A stretch of 64,000 nucleotides of DNA from Mycoplasmatales bacterium (GTDB lineage: Bacteria > Bacillota_I > Bacilli_A > Mycoplasmatales > JABAAY01): the NCBI GenBank assembly GCA_014238225.1, contig JABABL010000003.1, positions 1,692 through 65,691 on the forward strand. The letters run 5' to 3'. The notes beneath the pieces were generated by a model. It was not told the origin of the DNA and searched no databases. It was given only the letters and a program-made list of their open reading frames with translations. Below are positions 1 to 48,721 of this stretch, in pieces. How positions within the stretch are numbered: position 1 is the first letter of the stretch; each line of letters opens with the position of its first letter. The position numbers and the translations under genes are program-made.

Positions 1-1
1 A

Positions 2-853
2 TTAAACATTTTTTAACTCCTCTTTAAACAGTTCAGCTAGGGTTCTACCTACACCATCTTCATAGTTGTTATATGTCGTTGTGTACTTTGAAATTGCTTG
101 AATTTCATTTGGAGCATTTTTCATTGCAAAACTTTGGCCAGCATAAATTAACATTTCCTCGTCATTAAAAGAGTCACCAAAGGCAATAATATTATTCACA
201 GAAATATTCTTTTCTTTTGCTAAACGTTTAAGAGGTACCGACTTATCAACACCCATTGGTCCAAGCGATAAGCAAGTTACAGTTCTGTCTTTGTAAGGCA
301 AATCAGTTTGTCAGAAAAACTTAATCTTGTCTTTATATTTATTAATTAAATAATTATATTCATTGGAGCTAAATTCTCCATCGCTACGAAGTTTCACTGC
401 TACAATTTGAGCGATTTCAGAAGGGTTTTTTTGTGTAATGGCAACTTCATTTCCCCACATTTTTCAAACATCAACCATTCAACTTTTTCTATTAGAAAAA
501 TACTCTTTTCCACAATTTACAATATAGAAAAAATCCTTTTCTTTGAAAAAATCAATAACTTCGACAGCACACTTATCAAGTTTAACATCGTAAATTAAGT
601 CCATATTATTTCATAATTGAGCACCATTTGTTACGGCATAGTATACGTTTTTTTTCTCTATACCCAAACCATGTTTCTTTATCAATTCGTGTACTTCATA
701 CGATCCACGTCCGGTGTTTATAACCACATAGTGTCCTAATTTGACTAACTTTTTCAATATTGCAATTGACTCCTTTGTTATAACGTTATAAGAGGCAAAA
801 AGCGTCCCGTCTAAATCAATACTTACTATTTTTTTGTCTTTTGTTTTATTCAT
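2..853 (-). CDS. Cof-type HAD-IIB family sugar phosphatase (283 aa)
   Basis: Track ORFs 611..853 and 2..301 are in one frame. I read the 302-610 gap codon by codon and found only TGA (e.g. 311-313, 611-613), no TAA/TAG. HAD motif I DLDGTL is near the N-terminus and GDSFNDEEM near the C-terminus. TAA stop at 2-4. Confidence 0.8.
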
Positions 854-870
854 AATAGTTTTATTCTATT

Positions 871-2739
871 TTAAATTTTGGATTTTCTAAACAATTTTTT
901 AATTTCGTACATAAGTGTGAATACATCTGAAGGATTAATTCCCTGTATTCGCGACGCCTGGCCAATTGTTAAAGGTTGCACTTCGCAAAAACGTTTTTTT
1001 GTTTCACTTGAAAAGTTCAAAACAGATTGATAATTAAAGCCTTTAGGTATAGCCATGTTTTCTTTTTTTAGAAATTCCTTTATGTGTTTGTCTTGTTTAG
1101 CAAGATACCCTGCGTATTTTATTTCAGTGCTTACAATGAACGCCTCAGTAAAAGTCATTTTTATTTGTGTATGTTTCAAAACATCTTCTATGGTTATATC
1201 GTTTTTCTTCAACAATTGGTATGCTGACTCTTTGTTTTTTATTTTTATCGAAGGATGGGTTTTATTTCACTCAGAGGGGGAGATAAAAATATCCTTCAGT
1301 ATTTCTAAAGTTTGAGTTACTTTGTTGTATTTTTGAGCAACTTTTTGATACTGTTTCTCATTAATTGTCCCAACCTCAAAAGCATGTTTAAACAATCTTT
1401 TGTCTGCGTTGTCGTTTCTTAAAAGCAAACGATACTCCGCTGTAGATGTTAAAAGCCTGTACGGCTCGTTGGTGCCCTTAGTAGTCAAGTCGTCTATTAA
1501 AACCCCAATGTATGCTTCATTTCGTTTGAGAACCAACGGACTCTTTCCTTTTAGTTTTTGAGATGCGTTAATCCCTGCTATTAATCCCTGGGCTGCCGCT
1601 TCCTCATATCCACTAGTTCCGTTTACCTGTCCGGCACAAAAAAGATTAGAAATGATCTTAGTTTCTAACGACGAATTAAGTTGAGTAGGATAAATAGCAT
1701 CATACTCAATTGCGTACCCTCATTTAAGTGCTTTGGCTTTTTCTAATCCGGGAATTGTTTTCAGAATTTTTGCTTGAACATCATTCGGTAAAGATGTTGA
1801 CAATCCCTGTAAGTAAATAGAGTCCGTTTCCATAGATTCTCTTTCCAAGAATAATTGGTGAGTATCTCTTTCTGTAAACCTAACAATTTTATCTTCAATA
1901 CTAGGACAGTATCGCGGGCCTGTTGCAACAGTTGTTCCGTTATACATAGAACTTTTTGATAAGTTATCCAAGATAATTTGTTTTGTTTCTGGTGTGGTTC
2001 TTGTTATAAAACAATCAATATAGTCATTGCTTTCAATTGGTGAATCTTTTCAAAAACTGAATGATAATTTTTGCTTGCTTCCAGGAGCAACTTCCAAATT
2101 ACTGTACGATATTGTGCTATCTTCAATTCTTGGTGGAGTTCCAGTTTTTAAACGAATCAATTTAAAACCCAAAGCCTTTAATTGATTAGAAAGTCCCTTA
2201 AATGTTTTTTGGTTATCAGGTCCCTCAGAATTACGATCATCTCCCTTCATTGTTACTGATGCCATGTAAGTGCCTGTGGTAAGAATAACTATTGAACAAT
2301 TGTAGGTTTTTTTGGAAGTGGTAACTCCACATATTTTATTATTTTCGATAATTAGATTCATAATTGGTTTTTCAATTATCGTTAGTTGTTCTAGCTTACC
2401 TAGTATTTTTTGTGCTGTTTTGGGGTAAGAGATTTTATCTACTTGAGCACGTAAGCATTGGACACTGGCACCTTTGCTGGTATTCAACATTTTCATCTGT
2501 AAAACATTCTTATCAGCCATCGAACCCATTATTCCACCTAATGCATCAATTTCACGAACAACTATTCCCTTAGCTGTCCCACCGATAGCGGTGTTACAAG
2601 GCATGTGTCCGATTTTGTCTTTTGAGAGTGTGAAGAGAGCAGTTTCTAATGAAAGCTTAGCACAAATATTTGCAGCTTCAATTCCTGCATGCCCTCCACC
2701 TATCACAATGACATCAAAAAAACTTGTCGAGGCATTCAT
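871..2739 (-). CDS. mnmG: tRNA uridine 5-carboxymethylaminomethyl modification enzyme MnmG/GidA (622 aa)
   Basis: Four track ORFs (2050..2739, 1720..1971, 1267..1536, 871..1215) share one frame. The gaps were checked and contain only TGA. N-terminal FAD fold [14 protein letters not shown]; length typical of MnmG. Confidence 0.95.
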
Positions 2740-2877
2740 AGAGTAGAATTATTATATACTCACTAGTTCAAATATCTAAAAATTTATCAAAAACCTAACA
2801 ATAATCTTCACAACGATAGGAACCATATTTATTTTTATGTATCAAAACAGGAGTATAATATAAGCAGAGAAGATACT

Positions 2878-4854
2878 ATGCGAAAAAATACAAGGAAAAA
2901 AGTAAGGAACATAGCCATTATAGGTGCCGCGTTAGGATTAACGGCAGGGGGATCTGCTGGAATAGGTGTGGCTGTAGGACAACATGCTATTGGAGCACCC
3001 CAATCTGTACAAAATAATGTTGCACCACCTCCTATTGATTTACCACCAACACCAACACCAACAGCGCCAGATGCTGGGGAAACAGCTACTGTTCAAGCTA
3101 TTTATAATGAAGTTGTAGCAACTTACTTTAATACTATTCCTTTAGTTCTTGATGGTGGAGACATCGGAACAAGTTCTTTTACTAATCTAGATTTATCTAA
3201 CCCAATAAGAGCAAGTGAAGAAATCCCACTGCAAATTGATGCTCTACCTTTAGAACTCGAAAGTCAAGAAAATTTTTTATTACTATTATTTGAATCACTA
3301 GATGATCCTGTTTATAATGCTTTTTTCAATACTGGAACCGTTAGCGACGTATCCTTTAATGGCGTTCGACTAAGAATTTCAAATAGCGATATAGATGATC
3401 AATTACTTGGGACATACGACACAGAAATCACAATAGACGGCTTATCTTTGAATTTTAATCCATTTGGAAATCCTAATGACCCTGCTGTGGCAGCATTCAC
3501 ACAAAGACTGGAATACGGAAGACAATTAGGCGGAAGTACAGATGTTCCAATACTTGGTTCTATTTTAATTGACGACATATTGGTTGATGATGATGAAGGT
3601 GTTAATCTTGAAGATGTTGAGTTAATAGGTGATGAATTGTTACGTAGTTCAATACCACCCGGAACAGAAGCCTTATTAGAAATATTTAGAGTTCAATATT
3701 TTAATGTATCTCTTATTCCCCCATATGAAGAGGGTGACTTTAGAAATGAGTTAATAGATTCTTTCATTTTCCCTAATTTTTTGTCACTATTAGATCAATT
3801 AGGACTCTTTGTTCAAAACTTAGAAGATTTTGATGTTGCTAAAATAACAGGGGCTCAATTGACATACTATAATTCAGATAACATTGTGTACATTGATCCA
3901 AATAATTCCAACTCCCTACAAATCACTTTGCAAGTAGAAAGAATAGTTTTTGAATATGATGGAACATATCACCAATTTAGTTTTATTGAAAATGATTACA
4001 GATCGTTTGTAATTTTTAATTTAATAACTTCTGAAGGCGGCGGAGGATACGATGTTGATGCATACGGTAGTCTGTCACTTGATTTTAATGATTCAGTTAT
4101 TCTTGATGTTCCTGGTGATGGCGAGGAACCAGGCGATGGAAATGGCGAAGAACCAGGAGATGGGAACGGTGAAGAACCAGGCGATGGAAATGGCGAAGAA
4201 CCAGGAGATGGGAATGGTGAAGAACCAGGCGATGGAAATGGTGAAGAACCAGGCGATGGAAATGGTGAAGAACCGGGCGATGGAAATGGTGAGGAACCAG
4301 GTGATGGGAATGGTGAAGAACCAGGCGATGGAACTACTCCCGGATGACAAGGAGATACACCTCAGGCCGTTGTTGATAGAGAAGAGACACATGAATTGTT
4401 TGAAGAATTTTATGCATCTTTGAATAACTCGATTTATTCGCTTAATAGAATTACAAACAGCTCATATTCTCCAACCACACGAACTGAACAAACTTACTGA
4501 CAATTATTAAAAACAGCTTTTGAAGATGAAGTAGGCCCTATTGATGATATTCCGGCTTGAGAATTTATTTACAATATATACGAAATAAAAATTTCTAGTC
4601 ATGATGGGGAAACGGTTTATAAAAATGGTGCTGGCAAAAATGAAGGGGATGTTGAACATATTGCTTCAGGAGTATTAACTTTTAAAATCGACCTAAAAAT
4701 AACAATGGACAATACTGAAATCAAATATTTTACATGGGACATTCACGACATACTATTTACTTCTGGGGGAACAGGCTTAGGAAATCTAGACTATAACATT
4801 GCGCATAACACCAAAACACACTTTAAAAAACTAAAAAACGGCCCTAAAATTTAA
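2878..4854 (+). CDS. Membrane-anchored surface protein, paralog of the lipoprotein family but without a lipobox Cys; carries a (GEEPGDGN)9 repeat (658 aa)
   Basis: ORF 2878..4347 continues in frame through TGA (4345, 4498, 4558) to TAA at 4852-4854. N-terminus is MRKNTRKKVRNIAIIGAALGLTAGGSAGIGVAVGQHAIGAP: positive n-region plus hydrophobic core, with no Cys. The C-terminal part has family-type motifs (FYASLNNSIYSLNRITNSSY). Confidence 0.75.
4120..4335 (+). repeat. Nine head-to-tail 24-bp units (consensus ggYgaRgaaccRggNgatggRaaY) encoding GEEPGDGN x9
   Basis: Read directly: units begin at 4120, 4144, 4168, 4192, 4216, 4240, 4264, 4288 and 4312. They differ only at synonymous or near-synonymous positions and are in frame with the 2878..4854 CDS. 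Confidence 0.95.
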
Positions 4855-4930
4855 AATTACAAAAAGTAAATATTGATTAAAACATAATAATTTGTTTTTT
4901 TAAATATAATTAAATATAAAGGGACAAAAT

Positions 4931-7325
4931 ATGAGTAAAAACAAAAAAGCAATTTTTAACACTATTACAGCATCAACTTTGATCGCAGGAGCGGGGATAG
5001 CAGCTATTGCACAGGCTTGTGCACCCGATAGTCCTGTCACGCCTAATTTACAAAATTCAATTCGTGTTTTTGAAGAACTCAATGGTTATACACAAGGAAC
5101 ATCGCTATCTACGGAAGCTACTCATTTTTTTACAACCTTGCAAGCGGGAATTAGAACTGCGGATACACCTAGTCAACCCAGCAATGCAAATATCGTGAAC
5201 ATTCAAATCAATACATCTATTAGTAATGCGATATCGGCGGACAGTACAGGAGAATTTTTGTCAATTGCGGCAAATGTTTTAACAATTGGTGTTGCAGGTC
5301 AACAAAACCCAGGGGGAGATTCTAGATTTACCAATAACAGAGCAGTACAAATTTCTGGAATTAGATATCGTGATTCTGAAATTATTGATGGTGGTTCTAT
5401 ATTGTCTCCATCAACCTCGTTCCAATCAGTTTCTAACACCACACTTATTAATAATGCTGTTGCTTTGTTAGCTTCTTCAACCTCTAGTCCCTGATGAACC
5501 AAATGCAGCGGCACTCTGAAATGCTCTTCAGGCTTCAGTCATCCAAATTGGGAGCACTAACTCTTCTGTCATAATAAACGATGTAACAATCAACATGGGA
5601 ACAGGAAGTTCAAATGTAATTGTAACAAGCAACTCTTTAACGATTACTCGCGGAGATATTTCCATTGCAGCTAGTGGGGATGCTGGAGTAAATTTCAATT
5701 CGTTATTTAATAATGATTTGGACATGAATGGTTTGGTAATCAGTAATATTCAAGTAATCGCCGGAGAGATTCAGTCCTTGGGGGCCGGTAATGTGACCGG
5801 GTTAAATGGTGTTAGTAATCGCACAATCATTGATAATAACATTCAAAACCTTTACAATGCAAACACTGCGCCACAAGGAGGGCTTGTTCTTTACAATTTA
5901 TTTCAATCAGCAATACAAACCATTCAAGGAAACGAAACAGCTTCGATTACAAGATTTACTATTGCTGATTTAAATTGAATACAAAGTGATGCAGTTTTAA
6001 ATGGAGATAGCACTTCGAATATTTCAATTGCTGCAACAACTTTTACTGGTGAACCAGTCATCAGAATAGAGGCTAGCGGCGGAACTCAAACAATGTTTGA
6101 AAGCAGAAGAAGCATTCTTATACAAAACGTCATTGTCAATAACGGTACTATTGTAAGTGCTGATCCAATTGCCACTGATTCTTTTTATGCAACCACTTCT
6201 TTTGTAGGTGCAATTACGCGAGAGATTCAGGAGATGACGAACACAGACATACCTTTAAACAACACACTTTCTAATGCAATTGTTACAGCTATACAAGCTG
6301 TTCCAAGGCTTGCACCTTCGTCGGCAATTGAATTAACTTTTGTATCAATTAGGGATTTTACCGATGATGTGACCATTACTGAAACAATTACAGAAGACGT
6401 TTATGATATTTCTTTTGCTCAAGATTCTATTACATTTAATTTTCTATCTACAGATAACACTGCTTCTAATTCAACAATTACTAATAGCTTAGGTGTATTC
6501 ACCATTGGAAATATAAGTGTGGATTCTACAGATCCTTCAAATCTTATTGTGCAAGTTCCTTCCATTGAGCTAAATGACTTACTTCCCTTAGATCCTTCAT
6601 CACTAGACGGAGAAGCATTACTACTGAATACAGCTATTGACTTATTAACCAATGGAGGAATATCCTCTAGCACTAATCAAAGTGTTTTACTGAATGCAAT
6701 AACTACAGAGATACAAACCCAAGCAGGAGATAACTCGGTTATTAACAGTATAGAATACCTTGGTACGAATTCAAGTTCTAGTGTCGCTGCAAATCCATCA
6801 GGAGGTAATTTTAATCTTATCTTTGGTGCAGGTAGTTTGCTAATTGATGTTACTACAGAAGCTGGTGATAGCGTTTTTTGATCGAATACGGGAAACTTCA
6901 CTTTATCTCAAATCACAGTAGTAGATCAAGTGTTTAGTGGAACGATAACAACATCATCAAATTTAGAACCATACAACAATGTTGTTTCAGCCACTTATAG
7001 AGCATTTTCAGAAATAACTTCATATACTGCAAGTCAGCCGCCAGTGGGAATATCAGACTTAGCCACTGCTCTTTTAGCACGAATAGAGGCTGCTTTAGAT
7101 AATGGAGTTACTTTGAATAATTTTTCGCTTACAACACCTTTGCTAGCAACACTTGACAACAGTGCTGGAACAAGTGTACAAATTTCACAAGAAAGTGCTG
7201 TGCGCATAGCTATTGTTACTTCTACCCCAGCAGGAACAATTTATGGGCAAATTTATGGAGAAATAGTAAATCCAGTAGATGGAACCATCCCAGACTTAAG
7301 CGGATTAGTGCTGGACTTTTCATAA
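4931..7325 (+). pseudogene. Modular surface lipoprotein (family member) whose reading frame is broken by a +1 shift near 5489-5494. Could be a pseudogene, an off-phase variant or a sequencing error.
   Basis: N-terminus MSKNKKAIFNTITASTLIAGAGIAAIAQAC-APDS has a lipobox. This frame runs 4931..5560 and ends WWTKCSG...EH*. The next frame is open from 5472 to TAA 7323-7325 through TGA codons at 5517, 5976 and 6879. That frame encodes a family mid-module motif (AALWNALQASVIQIGSTNSS) upstream of its first ATG (5595), with no start codon or signal peptide of its own. Confidence 0.55.
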
Positions 7326-8143
7326 AGTCAGCATCGCTTTGTCTTTACAGTCACTAAATTAAATCTGACAAAAAAAACAATTGAATAAATTCTAATAAGC
7401 AAAACATATACAATAAAAGTGCCCGTGGGTATGTTATATTCATTTATGACATTGAGCCGCCACGGGCATTACACTATTCCAGTTAAGTGCACCCACTAGA
7501 TATTTAAGATAACCAATTAAAAATAGAAAAACAAATACTTAAATAAAACATATGAAAATTTTTGTAAGCGCAAAAAGGACTTGGAAAGTAAGACTAGTTT
7601 TATGATCTAGGTGGTCACATGTAGCTGGGATAGTATAACAGTTGCTGGGTAGTTCAATAGTGGTTGTTGTAAGGTTAGCGAACACACAAACAATTCCCTT
7701 CTTGGTGAGGCCTTTCTTTGTTCTCTTAACATTTTTCTCTGAGTAAATAAGTTTTGCAACGTAGATAACGATGTAATGACAGTACGATGAAAAGTGAACA
7801 AATAAAAAAGTATCGATTTCTCTATCGGGTGTCGCGATAAGGAAAACAGCAATAACGAGCGCAGTACAAACTTCAATTGTTGTTGGTTCAGAAATTAACA
7901 AACACGACATAAGAAACACCGGAATGAACGAAGAAGAACAAAAAAATCCAAATGTCCTTGATTAATTTACTAAGATATATTTTTTAGTTTATAAAAGTCA
8001 TTTTAACTTTTGCTACAACTAGAAACACATACTTCAATTCATTTTCCGTGGTTTCGTAATTCACTTTTTAAACAACTTCATTTTAGAATTTAAAAAAGGC
8101 AATAAATCTTTCGCTGTCACAAAAAGAAAGCCTTTTTTAAACT

Positions 8144-40667: not shown

Positions 40668-43412
40668 ATGAGAAAAAACAGTAAGAAAAAAGTCATAAGT
40701 ATTTTTGCCACTACAGCAGTAGGAGGAGCAGGAATTGTTGCCGCAGTTGCACAAAGTTGCGGACCTAGTTTTAACAATAGAAACAACACTCAAGAAGTTC
40801 TTTCTCGATTAAATAATACAGGATCAATGGCAGGTAATAATGGAACGACCAATATACCTGCTACAGGGACTCAAGAAAGATTATTCTATGATTTAATAGA
40901 AACAACACTCCAGGGACTCAATAATAACGAAAACCCTAACCTTGCGATAACTAGAATAGTTACACAAGTCCCAAATGTTAATATTGATGCGACTGCTGAT
41001 GGCACAAGCGTTACTTTTAGTCCTGAATCATTAATTATCAACGTGAGCAATACAACTAACAATTCTTTTCAATTTTTGAATACAGGGATTCTTACAATTT
41101 CTGGAATTGTTTATTCAGGGAGGGTCATCACATCAGCTGGGACGATTAACGATAATGGGTTAGTACTATCCAATACAACTGAAGCTATAAAAGTAGTTAG
41201 AAATTTAAACTCCATTACTAACATTAATCTTCCAGCCGAAGGAACAAGCGAGTTTTTTGTATACCAATTTTTACAAACCACAATTCGCACAATTGTTGGG
41301 AACGAAAACTCCTTAATAACCAACATTTCTGTAGTTCCATCAAGTGTTTCTAGTACAACGCAGGAAGATGCCACAACAGCCGTTCACATTGATAACGGTG
41401 GCATAACAATTTCCACATCCGGAGGGGCAGACTCAAGGTTTTCTCCTATTGGAAGCGGAACAAATATTTTTGGTATAGTTTTTTCTCCCACCGACAACAA
41501 TAATTCAATCGCAATCACTACGATTAGTTCTTTAACTAATTTAATTGCTGTGTCCGATAATGAAATTATTGTTGATGCTGCTTCTGGGTTGTCAACAATA
41601 AACAACGGAATATTTCCAGACCCAGGTACGAACACAAGAGTTTTATTTGATTCGATTTCTACTCTATTTGATTTAGAGATTGGAACTGGCATATCAGCAA
41701 TATCAGTTGCTCCGCTCCCTACAAATGTTTTTTACAGTGAAAATTCTTCTTCACTAAGAATTTCGCCTACAGCACTATTAATTGAGGCAGAAGATAACGG
41801 AAGGCAATACAACAGCATTAATGAAATAATTATCTCTAATATTGTTGTTAGAGAAGGACAACTGGTCAGTGCAGGCACGGCTACCATTGCTAACGGAGGA
41901 ACATTTTCATTTGCTCAGAATTCCTTTATTCCCTTTTTAGAACTTGGTAAGATAGCATTTCTAAGCCCAGGGGAGGCTCCCCCTCAAAATTCTGGGGAGT
42001 CGGCAATCTATAACGCTATTCTTTCTCACATTCAAACAATAGACTCCAACGCAGATATAGTTTCTATAGGAATTAACGGGATACCTTCTAGCCTCTCAGC
42101 AACAGAAATTACTCTTGATTCTAACCAAATAACCGTTAGAACAACAGGCGGGAGCACTAACTTTTTTAGAAATGTTGGGATTTTTTCTATAAGCAACATT
42201 GTTATTACGGACGGAGTTATAACCGATGGAGGTACCGCGACAGGATTGTCGGCCGATGCAAATAGTTCTCTAGTAATGGAGTCCTTTTTAGATTTAAATT
42301 CAAGAACGCAGTTCAACGCGCCAGATGAGTCATCCAACACATATAGAATGTGACAAGCGATTGAAGATGTAATAGGTAATGAATACAGAATTCTTACAGT
42401 TCAAATATTCGCAACAAATCAATCGTTGTTTTTGATTGACCCGGAAACCAACGCATTAACTATATTGCAGTCCAACATCTTTTTAGTTGTGGCAGAAGAA
42501 ATAGAAGGAAGTGAAACTAAACAATTCTTTAATTTTAATTCTCCCATGAACACAGGAAACAATCGTTCATTAACTTCTTTTGAAAACATTAATATACAAA
42601 ACAACAACATACAAGAAGGGGTAACCGTTTCTAATTTAACCGAAACACCTAATAATATAGAACAAATACAAATATATGAAGCATTACAAACCTTGAACAA
42701 TTACAACGCTTCCACTTCAAATGTTTTTGGAATAGCAAGCATTATTTTGAATGAGTTAAATAGTACATTAATTTCAAACACAACATTTCAAAGCTTTTCA
42801 TTTGACAGCGTTAATTTGGAAAATGTTGTTTCTTCTATGACTACACCAGAATCTTATACAATCAGCGGAATTAATTTAAACTCTGGAGTCGACTCACTAG
42901 GCGGAAGTGTAACAGGGGCTTTTGACTTAAATATTACATTTAATTCCACGCCAGATGTTGTCGCCACGTCTACTTTTGTTCAAAGCAGTTCTGCTGATGT
43001 GGAGGCTTTAATCGGAGGAGATGGGAATAATGACAATGTAAATAGTTTTCTTAATTATAACGTTGGATCACCGTTTACTGCGGATTCGGTTGCTGGCGAA
43101 TTGGTAACATCAATAAATCAATTTGTAAGCACAGATGCTAGAGTAAATAACTCTAATGCAGTAGTCAGAGTTATAAACGTGCAGAATTCTTTTGCAATTT
43201 CTACTTCCAACATCACAACAGAGTCAAACGAATATACAATTACAATTGGAGCGTCCTCAGGACTTATGATTCTTGTTGAAGACAGTACTACATCTACGGA
43301 CATCGGCACTTTTTCTCTTGATTTTGAGCTGATTATTACAATAACTAATCCAAGCACCACTCCTTTAATTTCTGCTAGCAACTTTAATGTACTAACTTAT
43401 ACTAGTGTATAA
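40668..43412 (+). CDS. Large modular surface lipoprotein, family member (914 aa)
   Basis: MRKNSKKKVISIFATTAVGGAGIVAAVAQSC-GPSF. ORFs 40668..42353 and 42426..43412 are in one frame; the gap I read has a single TGA. Repeated modules end in ISGIVYSGRVITSAGT, ISNIVVREGQLVSAGTA and ISNIVITDGVITDGGTA. Confidence 0.8.
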
Positions 43413-43435
43413 GTTTTAAATTTCCTAATAAAGGT

Positions 43436-43921
43436 GTGAACACTGACATATCTTCTGAGACTGAACTTTCTAAAAACATCATAAAATCAATAAACTTTAT
43501 AATTAAATATCATTATTCCTCTCCCCTTGAGAATCAAAACACCAATAAACTTACACAACTAAGAATGCAAAAGCTTTTATTTTTTGCCTATATTTTATAT
43601 TTCAAGAATAATAAAAGTTTTCTTTTCCAAGAAAATTTTAGTGCCTGAAACTATGGCCCTGTCGTTGAACAACTCTTTTTCGTATCGAAGGGAAAAACCG
43701 AGATTATTTTTGAAAACAACACATTTATTATTCCAATAAAGGAAAAGGATTTTTTCATATTGAGAAAAAAAATTGGAAAATACTTTGTGTTTTATAATGA
43801 AAAATCCACCTTTGAACTAGTAAAAATGTCTCACGACTCTTTGCTATGAAAAGAAAGTAAAAGAAAAAAAACAGGTGTAATTTTAAAAAAAGATATACGA
43901 AATATGTTTTCTAAAAAATAA
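43436..43921 (+). CDS. Panacea / DUF4065 (SocA/GepA-like, antitoxin-type) domain protein (161 aa), GTG start
   Basis: KLTQLRMQKLLFFAYILYFKNNKSFLFQENFSAWNYGPVVEQLF matches the recalled DUF4065 core (T.lKLqKLLYfa....g.pLf.e.f.AW..GPV....y). The W is a TGA codon (43646-43648). Extends to TAA 43919-43921. Confidence 0.7.
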
Positions 43922-44007
43922 TTTTGAAATCTCATCTGTAAGTAAAATAAAACTTGTTATTTTTCCTTGCTTATTTAGGAAGTGCTTTGTCCAGCAATAT
44001 ATAATTA

Positions 44008-45681
44008 ATGTATATGAAAACAGCCACAAGTAAACACAACGCAAACACTGAAGCTGCATATACAAGGTCTTCTAATTTGGAAATTTTTAAATATGTTTAT
44101 AAAAGGTCGACCTTCTCTTTATCTACCTATATCCTCTCTTTTCTTGTTATACTTTTTTTAACGTTGCCTAGTGTTGTTGCCATTGCTACTCAAAACCTTG
44201 ATGTGAGCGCATATAATAACGCTTTTGTTCCGGGATTTAACCAAGGTATAACGTTTTTCTACACCTTTACCATTGCATTTGTTTTTGTCGCGATAAAAAC
44301 GGTTCAAAATTTTACTCAAGAAGGAGAAAGAGGAATTATGCTTATTTTGTTAAGTAAACCGCTTTCTAGGGCTAAAATCTACTTTCATAAGTTTATTGGT
44401 GTAATTCTTTCTGGTATTACTTTCTCTCTTTTCTCTATCTTCACAGCTGGTATCATAACAGTCATCCTTGTAGGAGCGGTAAGTTCATCAGCACCAGACG
44501 GTAATTTCCTTTCTTCTTCCGCCTTTTGAAATCAATGAGTTAACTTTTTTGTTCTAGGTGCTGTTTGAAGTATTTTTCTGACAATAGGAATTACAGTTTT
44601 TTCGTTTGCAGTAGGATTGTTTTTTAACAGCGTTTTTACTTTAATAGTTGTTATTTTAAGTGGTATTATCACTTACTTTTTAGGGGCAATCTTACCTATA
44701 TTAGTTTCTATCAACACAATTATTGATTTTGCAACTGTGGCAGCTGATATTCAAACACAGAGTTTTAATGGGGTTGACAGAGTTGACAACATGGCAGTTA
44801 ATGGATTGCCAATACAAACAGCACTCCGCAATAGAGCAGAACAATTATCTTCTATTGATGGAATTACTGACTTACAGGTTCCTGAATTCGGATACGCTTT
44901 TAAAACTGGCAACTCAGGTAGTGGAAGCACTCAAACAGCCTTTGATGTAGCAAATGATGTCCTAATTGATGCAGAGTACACCACCAACAATTTCTCTCCA
45001 CTTTCCTTGGCTCCCCCCATACCATCTGCTTCTGATTTTGCGAACGGCAATGTACCGGTTTTTGTAAGTTTAGGAGGATTAAATGTTCAAAATAGCGCTA
45101 TAGATGCTTCAAACAGACCTTTTTCGGAATTTAATACAAGCAGGGAGTCAGAATTTGACCCTAACAATCCGTTTATTAATTACAGGGTTTACCCAATAAA
45201 TTTTGCCGATAGTTACCGAAGTGCTCAGCGAATTGGAAGCGCAGTCTACATTTTGAATCTAGGATATCAAATTAACTGAATGTTTGCAAATTTAACTCTG
45301 CAAGTGGGCTTTCCAAACTCCAATAACCCGGACTTTAGTAATGCCAATGTTCCTCCTTTGACAGTTATAAGGGGGAATCTTCCTGAAAGCAACACAGTAA
45401 AAGCGTATCCTTACGCAAATGTCATTTATAGACAAAACGGAGGTCCTGAGCAGACAAGAAGAATTGTCTTATACGATGAAAATTTACAAGTACCCATTCC
45501 TACTAGTGCCGTTAATGCAACTGTCAATCTATCAGATGCGACTGAATCATTTATTGTCACAGGGGAAAATCCAAATGTCGAGTTTTACAGTTCCACAGGT
45601 TTATACGTTGGATACTCGGTTGCTGGAGTTCTTTTAATAACAGCTAGCTACTTAAAATTCCGTAAAAAAGAATATAGCTAA
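44008..45681 (+). CDS. ABC-2-type permease-like polytopic membrane protein with ~270-aa extracytoplasmic domain (557 aa)
   Basis: Three track ORFs are in one frame through TGA. The ABC-2-like signature is QEGERGIMLILLSKPLSRAKIYF, set among 5-6 N-terminal TM segments. A long N/S/P-rich hydrophilic region follows, then a final TM segment (GLYVGYSVAGVLLITASYL). No ATPase gene is adjacent. Confidence 0.55.
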
Positions 45682-45685
45682 TGCT

Positions 45686-46813
45686 TTATTCTTTTAAGAT
45701 TGCTTCTAGTTTTTGTAAATTATCACTAAACTTTAATGGGTCAAAGTGACTTTTAGCGTATTCGAAACATTTTGTTCTCTTGGTCATATAAAGTTCCTGG
45801 TTCTCAACAAGCAATAGTTTTATATTTTTGACTAGTTCATTAACTAGATTATCTTTATTTTCCAGAAGAATACCTCTCTCATTATTCGTCCCTATATATT
45901 TTGTAGAAAGTTCAAAATTGTTTATAGATATTATAGGAATTCCCAACATTAGCGATTGTTTAGCAATAAAGGAATCAGGAGTGATTTTTCTTTCAGTATT
46001 TACAACAACAGTCAATTTGTTTTTTGCTATCTCAGTCATTAGATTTTTTAATTTAGGTAGTGGTTTGAAAATAACATTTGGATATTTTGCTGAATAACTC
46101 ATTATTTCCTTTTGCAATTTTCCAGTCCCCATAAATGTAAATTTTATGTCGGGAAGTTGCGTTGCGGTTTGCAATACAGACAGTATTGATTTTGCATCAT
46201 TTAATACACCTGAATACAAAACCCCATCGTTACCAATTTTTTTGTAATTATAATTTGCAGGAAGGGATTCAGCAACCTCTTCAGATACAAAAACCTTTTC
46301 CGGGGTAATGTTTAAAAGCGAAGAGAATATCTTTTTTTCCTGAACTGTATTTACTAAAATATAATCAATGTACTTATCGTGTTTCTTTTTAATATAAGGA
46401 TCCAAATTGTTATTGCTTTTCAGGTACAAATCTGAACAAGCATGTTTTATTAGGACGAATTTATTTTTCATTAATGTTTTTTTTGGAAGAACATCGAGTA
46501 TAAGAGGTGACGTTATGAAAAATATCTCATTAGAGACCGCCAGATTAATTTTTTCGCTAATTTTTTCGCGAAATATTTTTAAGTGTTTCTGTCGTCCTCT
46601 TTTAGTGATTATGTCTTCGATTTTGTATTGAAAACAAGAAGTGTTGTCTACAAAGTTTTTAATGGAAAAAAAATTCTTGCTGGACTCAGAAACAGTGAAG
46701 GGATCGTCAAATAATTCTATTAGAGTATCAAATTTCAAGTTTTGAATTATTTTATAATTTTTATATCCGCTTGAACTATAAGTGCTAACGCGGTGTAAGG
46801 CTATGTATTTCAT
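45686..46813 (-). CDS. GT-B fold glycosyltransferase (GT4-like) (375 aa)
   Basis: Uninterrupted ORF. The C-terminal half has the typical pattern (FTFMGTGKLQKEI....YPNVIFKPLP.....LTVVVNTER....DSFIAKQSLMLGIPIISIN....TKYIGTNNERGILLEN). Confidence 0.6.
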   Translation of the reverse strand: MKYIALHRVSTYSSSGYKNYKIIQNLKFDTLIELFDDPFTVSESSKNFFSIKNFVDNTSCFQYKIEDIITKRGRQKHLKIFREKISEKINLAVSNEIFFITSPLILDVLPKKTLMKNKFVLIKHACSDLYLKSNNNLDPYIKKKHDKYIDYILVNTVQEKKIFSSLLNITPEKVFVSEEVAESLPANYNYKKIGNDGVLYSGVLNDAKSILSVLQTATQLPDIKFTFMGTGKLQKEIMSYSAKYPNVIFKPLPKLKNLMTEIAKNKLTVVVNTERKITPDSFIAKQSLMLGIPIISINNFELSTKYIGTNNERGILLENKDNLVNELVKNIKLLLVENQELYMTKRTKCFEYAKSHFDPLKFSDNLQKLEAILKE

Positions 46814-46842: not shown

Positions 46843-48021
46843 TTACACATTTTTTACAAAACACAGAGATCCACGACAAATTGTTTTTTCCAAATCATGA
46901 TGCTTATTCATTAAAATAATATCTGCAATCATGCCTTCTCGAATAGAGCCTGTTACATCATTTATTTTCAATAACTTTGCTTGATTGAAGGAAGACATTG
47001 CAACCGCATCGTTTATTGTTACATAGTTAAAACTCAAAATATTTTTATAAGATTGACTCATTTTTCCACCCGAGCCAGCAAGAGTTTCAGGGTGGCCAAG
47101 AAGATGAATTCTGCTATCTTCTTTTTGTATTCGAATGGGCCCCATATTATAAACACCATTTTTTAGTCCCTTTGGACTTACTGAGTCGGTAACCAACATT
47201 ATCTGACTAGTGGATTTTGTTTTTAAGACTAATTCCAAAGTAGATTTAGTCAAGTGAATAAAATCAGCAATGAGCATAACGCTGGTTTTTGGATTTATTA
47301 AAAACTCATGTGCAACAAAAACCTCGTGATGATCTATCCCGGTCATTCCGTTAAACAAATGAGTACAATAAATTGCACCAGCATCAATGTTACTTTTTAC
47401 TTCTGAATTATTGGCTGCGCTGTGACCAATGGATGGAGCAATATTTCGTTTGATAACTTCTTTTGTAAAGGATATTGTTTCATCTGTCGGGGAAAAAGTT
47501 ACCACTCTTATTGAACGATTAGACGCATCTCAAAATGTTTCAAAAACATCCTTGTTATAAGGAATAATATATTTTTCATTGTGAGTTCCCTTTTTATTCT
47601 TATCAATAAAAGGTCCTTCTAGATGAAACCCTTCTAAAAAAGCACCACGTACTTGTTTTTGAATTTTATCAAACAATATCGCGTTTTTTTTCATTGTGGA
47701 TAGTGTAATTTTTACATCAGCAGTTATATAGGTGTATAAAAATCTTGTTGTCCCTTCAGAAGGCAGCATTTTTATTAGGTTTCTCACAGACGCTTCACTA
47801 GCATCCCATATGTCACTTCCATATGCACCGTTTACTTGTAAGTCAATAAAACCTGGAATAGAGTACAACCCAGTACCATCGATTACCTCAATGTCTTTTT
47901 TTGTTGAGATATTATTCCCTATTTTTTCTATCAGGCCACCATTTATAAGGATATCCTTGGTTTTTAATGTTTCATCATGGTTATATATATCAATGTTTTT
48001 AATTAGTATTTTATTTTTCAA
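46843..48021 (-). CDS. nagA: N-acetylglucosamine-6-phosphate deacetylase (392 aa), TTG start
   Basis: IPGFIDLQVNGAYG, FLEGFHLEGPFI, IGHSAAN and THLFNGM motifs. ORFs 47530..48021 and 46843..47505 are joined by one TGA. AAAGGA RBS upstream of TTG 48021. Confidence 0.9.
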
Positions 48022-48721
48022 GCATTATCCTTTTGATTTTCTTATTATAGTTTTGAATTAGGAAAATATCTTGTTTTTTAAAATAAACCTTAATGACATA
48101 ATAAATATAGATTTGAAACAAGTCTACCTGGGGTATTCTTCAAAATATCGAGTTATCTTCTTTCACCAATTTTAATTTTACTCCAAAGCTTTCAACTATC
48201 ATTATTTCTATCTCATCATAATATACTTTTTCTTCAGAGTCATTGTGGAAGAAAGACATATAAACATTCGTAAAAAAGAGTTCACCTCTTTTCATATTGG
48301 TTAGTATATCGCCCTCGCCAATCATAAATCTTGTTATAGATGGCATTCTCGCAAAACAAGTGATACCAGTAGAAAGAGAAACTGGGACACTCAACTCTTT
48401 AAAATTTCTAATCAAAGCAAATCCAATGGCTTCTTGTTCAAAAATATAACTTTGCTCTTCGCCTGTTAATTTTATTTCAAAGTTTTGAGCAATTGCAAAG
48501 CATGTTTTTATAAACTTGGGTGAGTAATTATTTTTGGTTTCAATGTACTTTCTTAAAAGCGACATTCCAAAGACGGTTGCTCAATTTTCATGTGTATCTT
48601 TGAAAAATTCATGAATTGTTTTTTTACTGACTTTTACAGCATTATCAACAGTAATTACTTTGGCTCACTTTTCCTTAAACAATAAATATCCTGGACTATT
48701 AGTTAATCGACGAAATATCAT
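48011..48721 (-). CDS. Hypothetical protein (236 aa if TGA 48140-48142 is read as Trp)
   Basis: ATG 48721 gives MIFRRLTNSPGYLLFKEKWAKVITVDNAVKVSKKTIHEFF..., and track ORF 48140..48565 is its core. Under code 4 it reads on for 42 I/Y/K-rich codons to TAA 48011-48013, overlapping the nagA start by 11 nt. Confidence 0.45.

Follow-up and report, generated by a model that had tools for sequence, protein, structure and literature searches.

Why does a bacterium with a minimal genome keep an antitoxin-type gene that has no toxin beside it? This question is raised by a locus of a Mycoplasmatales bacterium (assembly GCA_014238225.1) that lies in a stretch of 64,000 nucleotides (nt) of contig JABABL010000003.1 (positions 1,692 to 65,691 of the forward strand). 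We refer to this whole stretch as the window and number positions from its first letter. The gene in question (43436..43921, forward strand) encodes a protein of 161 amino acids (aa) of the Panacea family (DUF4065), the family of the PanA antitoxins of PanA-PanT (PanAT) modules. An initial annotation, made from the letters of the window alone, had singled it out as an orphan. We find that it is a very divergent and functional member of the family, present in a single copy, long resident among housekeeping genes and without a recognisable partner. On balance, its product is probably a solo PanA-type neutraliser in the core chromosome, which would have lost its toxin and bind a ligand that is not encoded next to it.

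A divergent member of the Panacea family

The open reading frame (ORF) of the Panacea gene comprises 161 codons from a GTG start and is open only in genetic code 4, TGA being read as tryptophan at two of its codons (W71 and W138). The Pfam profile of the domain, PF13274 (SocA_Panacea), matched the product with 38.8 bits (E-value (E) 2e-9; gathering score 25.7), residues 45-139 being aligned with positions 2-113 of the 113 in the profile. The phage family phrog_1281 gave a stronger match that covered residues 13-160 (79.8 bits, 4.1e-22). These matches bear out the family assignment of the initial annotation, which had quoted the motifs LRMQKLLFFAYILYF and FSAWNYGPVVEQLF that the protein carries. 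Similarity to the NCBIfam equivalog of SocA (NF047745) was weak, with 50.5 bits and a cut-off of 190.

Relatives of the protein are numerous and distant. Among 1.84 billion representative proteins, 870 were recovered at E<=0.001, and the best full-length relative was just 41% identical. The nearest named relatives were DUF4065 proteins of Spiroplasma and prophage proteins. In an index of 5.8 billion proteins the sole match was the gene itself, annotated there as a product of 118 aa that starts at M44. A scan of a genome collection with the single Panacea protein returned one genome alone, the metagenome-assembled genome (MAG) 'Mycoplasmatales bacterium bin29s', which belongs to the same genus and which we call the sister species. 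No relatives of the Panacea protein or of the permease encoded downstream turned up in metagenome scans, and PADLOC models matched neither the gene nor its neighbours. The product of 43436..43921 is a real, very divergent protein of the Panacea family.

The public gene call (43565-43921) begins at M44 and omits the conserved N-terminal helix. It is probably too short, and the 161-aa form is better supported, because the ortholog in the sister species likewise runs for 161 codons from this GTG, because the 43 codons before M44 have a ratio of nonsynonymous to synonymous substitution rates (dN/dS, or omega) of 0.12, because alignments with homologs and with phrog_1281 begin at about residue 13, and because the AlphaFold2 model places a confident helix at residues 5-27.

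Conserved residues and predicted fold

The residues that are invariant in the family (K46, W71, G74-P75-V76, H133 and W138) are all kept in the 161-aa protein. In alignments of 22 and 44 homologs K46, G74-P75-V76, H133 and W138 were invariant, and G74-P75-V76 is kept in the sister species as well. Y73, which completes the hairpin motif Y73-G74-P75-V76, and H133 are kept in both species and align with the family. The GPV motif is critical for neutralisation (Kurata et al. 2022, PMC8832971), and stand-alone PanA needs a tyrosine beside strand beta2 and a histidine that ends helix alpha5 (Ernits et al. 2023, PMC10440598). In the 161-aa protein this tyrosine and histidine are Y73 and H133.

The Panacea domain is a compact fold of helices alpha1-alpha7 and strands beta1-beta2 (Ernits et al. 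2023, PMC10440598). The AlphaFold2 model of the 161-aa protein (predicted local distance difference test score 76.9, predicted template modelling score 0.76) is a helical bundle with a hairpin at residues 68-76 and helices at residues 5-27, 41-59, 103-121, 125-134, 136-143 and 151-159, to which no helix-turn-helix, PAD1 or ZBD domain has been added. One more helix would be expected at residues 83-96; compared with the family, this stretch is shortened, and it is modelled with low confidence. The segment that follows the GPV hairpin is about 9 residues shorter than in the family. In a search by fold the model matched phage proteins (E 7.6e-5, template modelling (TM) score about 0.6), and its sole match in the PDB, a non-significant one, was a chain of the DarG antitoxin (7yk3_B; E 0.8, TM 0.43). 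Matches to TRPV3 in a search of the PDB by sequence were set aside as chance.

Matches to the hairpin also came from another setting. A protein of 2457 aa in the representative library (P0004) matched query residues 66-93 in 11 separate stretches (44% identity, E 5e-21). Such a pattern could reflect a repeat protein that consists of copies of the hairpin with the GPV motif, or the matches may be an artefact of composition.

Purifying selection and long residence in the core genome

The source genome is a 680-kb assembly of 60 contigs, 88% complete, and the gene at 43436..43921 is its only Panacea copy. Selection and positional conservation were measured from two species, the source and the sister species. 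The sister MAG has the gene order pyruvate dehydrogenase (PDH) E1, GroES, GroEL, lipoprotein and Panacea, and its Panacea gene is intact, encoding 161 aa from the same GTG. The dN/dS of the Panacea gene is 0.055 at a dS of 0.93, a value typical of core genes and one that can be set beside those of its neighbours in Table 1. Its G+C content at third codon positions (GC3) is 0.265, equal to that of the neighbours. PDH E1, GroES and GroEL flank it on one side, and an amidohydrolase, a methionyl-tRNA synthetase and a transporter of the major facilitator superfamily on the other. A search around the gene for Rfam families, tRNAs and bounding repeats found none.

Given the intact ortholog in the sister species, the dN/dS of 0.055 and a GC3 like that of the genome, the Panacea gene works and is not a remnant. 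GC3 and the housekeeping flanks indicate that it is long resident in the core genome. The gene is presumably expressed. The core-gene-like purifying selection also bears on a suggestion of the initial annotation, that the domain has a role outside toxin-antitoxin (TA) function in this genome; such a role is indirectly favoured by it.

An orphan among paired relatives

An order-wide search found Panacea genes in 33 of 400 genomes and 17 of 61 genera. A small downstream gene abuts or overlaps 22 of the 31 Panacea genes that were examined in other Mycoplasmatales. Among the 22 Panacea genes at the loci that were fetched from other Mycoplasmatales, 13 precede a gene on the same strand that overlaps them by 11-92 nt or lies within 7 nt, and all nine of the closest copies in the order-wide search have an abutting or overlapping downstream gene. 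The loci of two relatives outside the group agree, as each of the three Panacea genes seen there precedes, at a distance of 22-94 nt, an unannotated gene of 129-142 aa.

The Panacea gene of the window has no such neighbour. As the initial annotation had reported, it stands between a 914-aa ORF that ends at 43412 and a 557-aa ORF that begins at 44008, and the spacers of 23 nt upstream and 86 nt downstream are too small for a gene. Homologs of 27 Mollicute Panacea partner proteins were sought in the source genome and none was found (best E 0.026 over 43 aa); searches of the same genome for Fic and ParE/RelE toxins were empty as well. A small alarmone-synthetase toxin was considered and rejected, the sole RelA_SpoT match being a 732-aa housekeeping Rel by tRNA-synthetase-like genes. 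In the sister species, stops interrupt all three frames of the antisense ORF 43883..44065 (-), for which the initial annotation had already seen no support. Two alternative-frame ORFs that are still open, 43584..43739 (+) and 43397..43558 (-), were rejected on omega values of about 1 or above (2.45 and 0.98; Panacea frame over the same spans, 0.03 and 0.13). With the partner, toxin-family and small-ORF searches all empty, the earlier statement that the gene has no recognisable toxin partner stands. Among its Mollicute relatives the gene is unusual in being a true orphan.

An apparent second copy, inverted, was seen in a public contig (ENA ERZ26869290 ctg183239, 1-8016) and rejected as an artefact, since the contig is a multiple fold-back chimera of this locus, all of whose pieces map to the window. 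Its inverted arms measure 1135, 552, 319 and 264 nt, with 99-100% complementarity.

The partners found at other Mollicute Panacea loci form several groups. Pfam assigned no significant family to the partner proteins, barring one borderline TIR-like match. Downstream partners of 263-312 aa at four loci of other Mycoplasmatales (L029, L035, L036 and L037) share the motif R-N-[IL]-[IL]-[ST]-H, which suggests a HEPN-like (Rx4H) R-N-x-x-[ST]-H family of candidate RNase toxins. At L029, L031, L035, L040 and L034 the partners are proteins of 138-175 aa that begin with a coiled coil and end with two membrane helices, and this family is similar to the membrane-disrupting PanT toxins that Kurata et al. 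validated. Those of L047, L059, L061 and L066 (135-194 aa) carry a C-terminal P-[ILV]-I-[IFL]-D-[LM]-[NH]-H motif, and L047 has two tandem Panacea-partner pairs of this type side by side.

Other solo copies were also encountered. At two Mollicute loci, L046 (G034, 2090-3820) and L043 (G013, 5067-6026), the Panacea gene is alone among housekeeping genes. One of the two lies 21 nt ahead of a 398-aa gene whose homolog in the source genome is 59% identical, and the other lies just 3' of a 127-aa gene whose homolog there is 44% identical. By the look of their sequences, we tentatively take these neighbours to be pgk and rplQ, respectively. Solo Panacea copies in core contexts recur in Mycoplasmatales.

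A probable solo neutraliser whose ligand would be encoded elsewhere

How might such a gene have come to its place, and what would keep it there? The explanation we favour is that the Panacea gene derives from the two-gene PanA-PanT modules spread by mobile elements of Mollicutes, and that the toxin gene beside it had disappeared by the time the two known species of the genus diverged. The initial annotation had listed loss of the toxin among its readings. That reading is compatible with the data and needs the fewest assumptions about the past, given that Panacea genes in other Mycoplasmatales are, as a rule, paired. If the protein behaves as its family does, it would bind another protein directly, by way of the conserved core formed around the Tyr-Gly-Pro-Val hairpin and the histidine that ends helix 5, and the gene would be kept because its product still binds something through this core. 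The ligand would not be next door. It may be a protein whose gene lies in another part of the genome, either an unrecognised toxic one or one that is regulated in some other way; alternatively, the ligands may be PanT-type toxins of phages or mobile elements, in which case the gene would have an anti-addiction or immunity role.

Several points weigh against this explanation. The core of the proposed mechanism is drawn from the behaviour of the family, and no trace of a former toxin gene was seen at the locus. In an assembly of this completeness and fragmentation a partner could sit in unassembled sequence, and given the diversity of PanT the homology searches could miss an unrecognised toxin elsewhere in the genome. 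With two species alone, positional conservation is weak evidence. Moreover, core-like selection exceeds the naive expectation for occasional immunity against incoming elements, and its strength is easier to reconcile with a resident partner or with a co-opted role in the cell.

Neighbouring genes and junctions

Table 1. Features around the Panacea gene of the window and dN/dS between the source and sister species.
Feature	Position	Strand	Evidence	dN/dS
PDH E1 (aceE)				0.043
GroEL				0.02
914-aa predicted lipoprotein, signal peptide and lipobox (AVAQSC)	40668..43412	+	Translation	0.147
23-nt junction, lipoprotein stop to Panacea GTG	43413..43435	+	22/23 identical between species	
Stand-alone Panacea (DUF4065, PanA-like) gene	43436..43921	+	PF13274 and phrog_1281 matches	0.055
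86-nt Panacea-permease spacer	43922..44007	+	Diverged between species barring TATATAATTAAT	
557-aa ABC-2-type permease-like membrane protein, large hydrophilic domain	44008..45681	+	PF12679, paralog, hydropathy	0.039

The upstream lipoprotein had no match in Pfam, NCBIfam, PADLOC or PHROG. As it would be an exported protein, it is an unlikely target of a cytoplasmic antitoxin. The short junction between its stop codon and the Panacea GTG is far better conserved than the other spacers, of which the one between groEL and the lipoprotein gene is identical at 76 of 100 positions and the one between the Panacea and permease genes at 74 of 131 alignment columns. For this reason the lipoprotein and Panacea genes probably belong to one transcription unit and are co-transcribed or translationally coupled. 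A scan for promoters and terminators gave no signal above chance.

The downstream spacer had no Rfam match. What is conserved of it, TATATAATTAAT, lies directly before the permease start and includes a TATAAT (44000-44005) that is 2 nt before the ATG at 44008 and 8 nt before the ATG at 44014. Of these two ATG codons the sister species shares just the second, which is probably the conserved start of the permease. The TATAAT is a probable separate promoter of the permease gene, and the permease mRNA may possibly be leaderless or near-leaderless from the ATG at 44014. The first residues of the permease, about 24, are not conserved between the two species. In the sister MAG, contigs end at the junction between the two genes (C11 at its end and C102 at its start, both breaking at the 5' end of the permease gene), and the Panacea-permease order is probably the same there. 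Short direct repeats, GGAATTYAGACTT, occur at these breaks.

The profile of ABC-2-type permeases, PF12679 (ABC2_membrane_2), scored 26.1 bits against the 557-aa protein, just below its cut-off of 27.2. A paralog of 582 aa, 30% identical, is encoded on another contig of the source genome (C44; locus L025, 7422-10159). It has no Panacea gene and directly follows the gene of an ATP-binding cassette (ABC) ATPase (PF00005, 89.8 bits), the stop and start codons of the two abutting. This arrangement suggests that the family of the 557-aa protein is an ordinary transporter component. The permease of the window has no ABC ATPase nearby on its contig, and the Panacea gene occupies the slot of the ATPase gene; the permease might make use of the ATPase of the C44 operon.

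Some further genes were noted in passing. A 234-aa PD-(D/E)XK or Cas4-like nuclease (PF12705, 50.1 bits) is encoded 2 nt after the C44 paralog (L025, 10161-10865). In the window, neither the convergent 375-aa gene at 45686-46813 (-), a glycosyltransferase according to the initial annotation, nor the 236-aa gene at 48011-48721 (-), upstream of the amidohydrolase gene, had a significant Pfam match.

Alternative explanations

Could the missing partner be the membrane protein next door? The initial annotation had considered it as a novel partner under Panacea control. The two would form a functional pair in which the Panacea protein restrains a harmful or leaky ATPase-less permease by way of the cytoplasmic N-terminal segment that the latter has before its first membrane helix, and the permease would be either a new, very large membrane 'PanT' or the object of a new regulatory use of Panacea. 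The genes do lie close together on the same strand, in an order probably shared by the sister species, and they are under equally strong selection; the Panacea gene takes exactly the position of the ABC ATPase in the paralogous operon, and stand-alone PanA proteins have been validated that neutralise membrane toxins via the segment preceding a membrane helix (PMC10440598, PMC8832971). However, a survey of co-occurrence found no Panacea gene within about 20 kb of a permease homolog outside the genus, in 41 genomes searched for both, and the family appears to be that of an ordinary transporter component; the paralog has its ATPase and lacks Panacea. The spacer is poorly conserved barring the TATAAT, which suggests an independent promoter. 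The N-terminal residues of the permease, about 24, differ between the two species. Typical pairs overlap or abut, and a length of 557 aa far exceeds that of any validated PanT. We therefore regard a pair of this kind as improbable, and the suggestion of the initial annotation is disfavoured. We think it no more probable that the Panacea protein was recruited as the cytoplasmic partner of the ATPase-less ABC-2-type permease, filling the gene slot of the lost ATPase. If the Panacea protein did serve the permease, this would be the first Panacea domain to control a large polytopic membrane protein of housekeeping type instead of a dedicated toxin, and it would mean that an antitoxin domain had been domesticated to serve the cell in a minimal genome.

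A cognate toxin could instead act in trans, having been rearranged away from the locus or belonging to the 12% of the genome that is not assembled, with the Panacea protein a classical, addictive type II antitoxin. An omega of 0.055 is the selection to be expected from addiction to a resident toxin, the residues for neutralisation are intact, and PanT proteins often lack a recognisable family, Pfam being empty for most of the Mollicute partners. Yet split toxin-antitoxin pairs are rare, and no homolog of the 27 partners or of the Fic, ParE/RelE or toxSAS families was found in the assembly. Genes of the Panacea family without a partner were also common in the survey of Kurata et al. (PMC8832971). 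We consider this alternative unlikely; it overlaps the explanation favoured here, which admits the same ligand. Much less credit can be given to a SocA-like type VI adaptor that hands a target protein to a protease. Lon is encoded in the genome, there is some similarity to the SocA equivalog, and both mechanisms can coexist according to Kurata et al. (PMC8832971), but the score is far under the equivalog cut-off, no SocB-like gene adjoins, and no ClpP (PF00574) was detected in the 88%-complete genome by a search that finds ClpP in 12 of 14 reference genomes. In the systems tested, moreover, neutralisation by PanA was independent of ClpXP or Lon (PMC8832971). The notion that scarcely deserves belief is that of a decaying remnant or an artefact of annotation without function. 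A small AT-rich ORF in which TGA does not stop translation, with no partner and with no close relative in the databases besides itself, might invite it. Against it stand an ortholog of the same length and start codon at a dS of 0.93 and an omega of 0.055, the retention of every family-invariant residue, significant profile matches and a confidently predicted fold, and the selection analysis excludes a dead remnant in practice.

Relation to known systems

The closest known counterpart is PanA of the type II PanAT systems (Kurata et al. 2022, PMC8832971; Ernits et al. 2023, PMC10440598), with which the protein of the window shares the domain, the size and the stand-alone architecture, the GPV motif, the tyrosine and histidine of neutralisation, and a predicted helical bundle with a beta-hairpin. 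Its nearest relatives are prophage-associated copies of Mollicutes in typical two-gene modules. In contrast to these, the gene of the window has no adjacent partner, is present in a single copy in a housekeeping neighbourhood and not on a mobile element, and is conserved across species under selection like that of core genes. An adjacent partner defines PanAT, and the locus should accordingly not be filed as a toxin-antitoxin locus.

The Panacea domain is shared as well by SocA of Caulobacter, the type VI antitoxin that acts as ClpXP adaptor for SocB, from which the protein of the window is set apart by its score against the equivalog, by a genome without detected ClpP and by the lack of a SocB-like neighbour. 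In Mycoplasma mycoides, the DUF4065 gene MMSYN1_0417 adjoins the RelE-like MMSYN1_0416 and has been described as non-essential and as an atypical antitoxin (mSphere 2026, PMC13621843). It likewise encodes a Panacea-family protein in a minimal Mollicute genome; however, it retains an adjacent toxin-like partner, and the gene of the window has none. The C-terminal helical domain of DarG (PDB 7YK3), which gave the non-significant match by fold, has been noted as a remote relative of DUF4065 (mSphere 2026, PMC13621843); the protein of the window comes without a macrodomain or DarT.

Lone members of the family are not new. Only about half of 2,281 DUF4065 homologs were found in conserved two-gene loci (Kurata et al. 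2022, PMC8832971), and a phytoplasma with 25 DUF4065 copies had just 3 of them in TA-like loci (PMC8832971). The surveyed partner-less proteins thus resemble the case described here in their lack of a two-gene locus, also in a Mollicute. They were counted and not analysed, whereas the gene of the window combines its orphan status with measured purifying selection and a position in the core genome. With lone Panacea genes already known to be common, the novelty that the initial annotation had implied was overstated, and the locus is a clean example instead of a new kind of system.

Implications

The role of the partner-less Panacea proteins, which make up about half of the family, is the question that this locus addresses, and the case is an unusually clean one: a solo copy with core neighbours in a genome of about 0.68 Mb, which has little room for spare genes. 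What is new is the measurement of core-gene-like purifying selection on a solo Panacea copy in a minimal genome. It has been proposed that the Panacea domain may act as a sensor and not just as a neutraliser (Ernits et al. 2023, PMC10440598). The gene of the window is an argument that selection can act on a function of solo Panacea proteins even when no toxin gene lies beside them, and the small proteome of its host, about 600 proteins, favours finding the ligand of such a protein.

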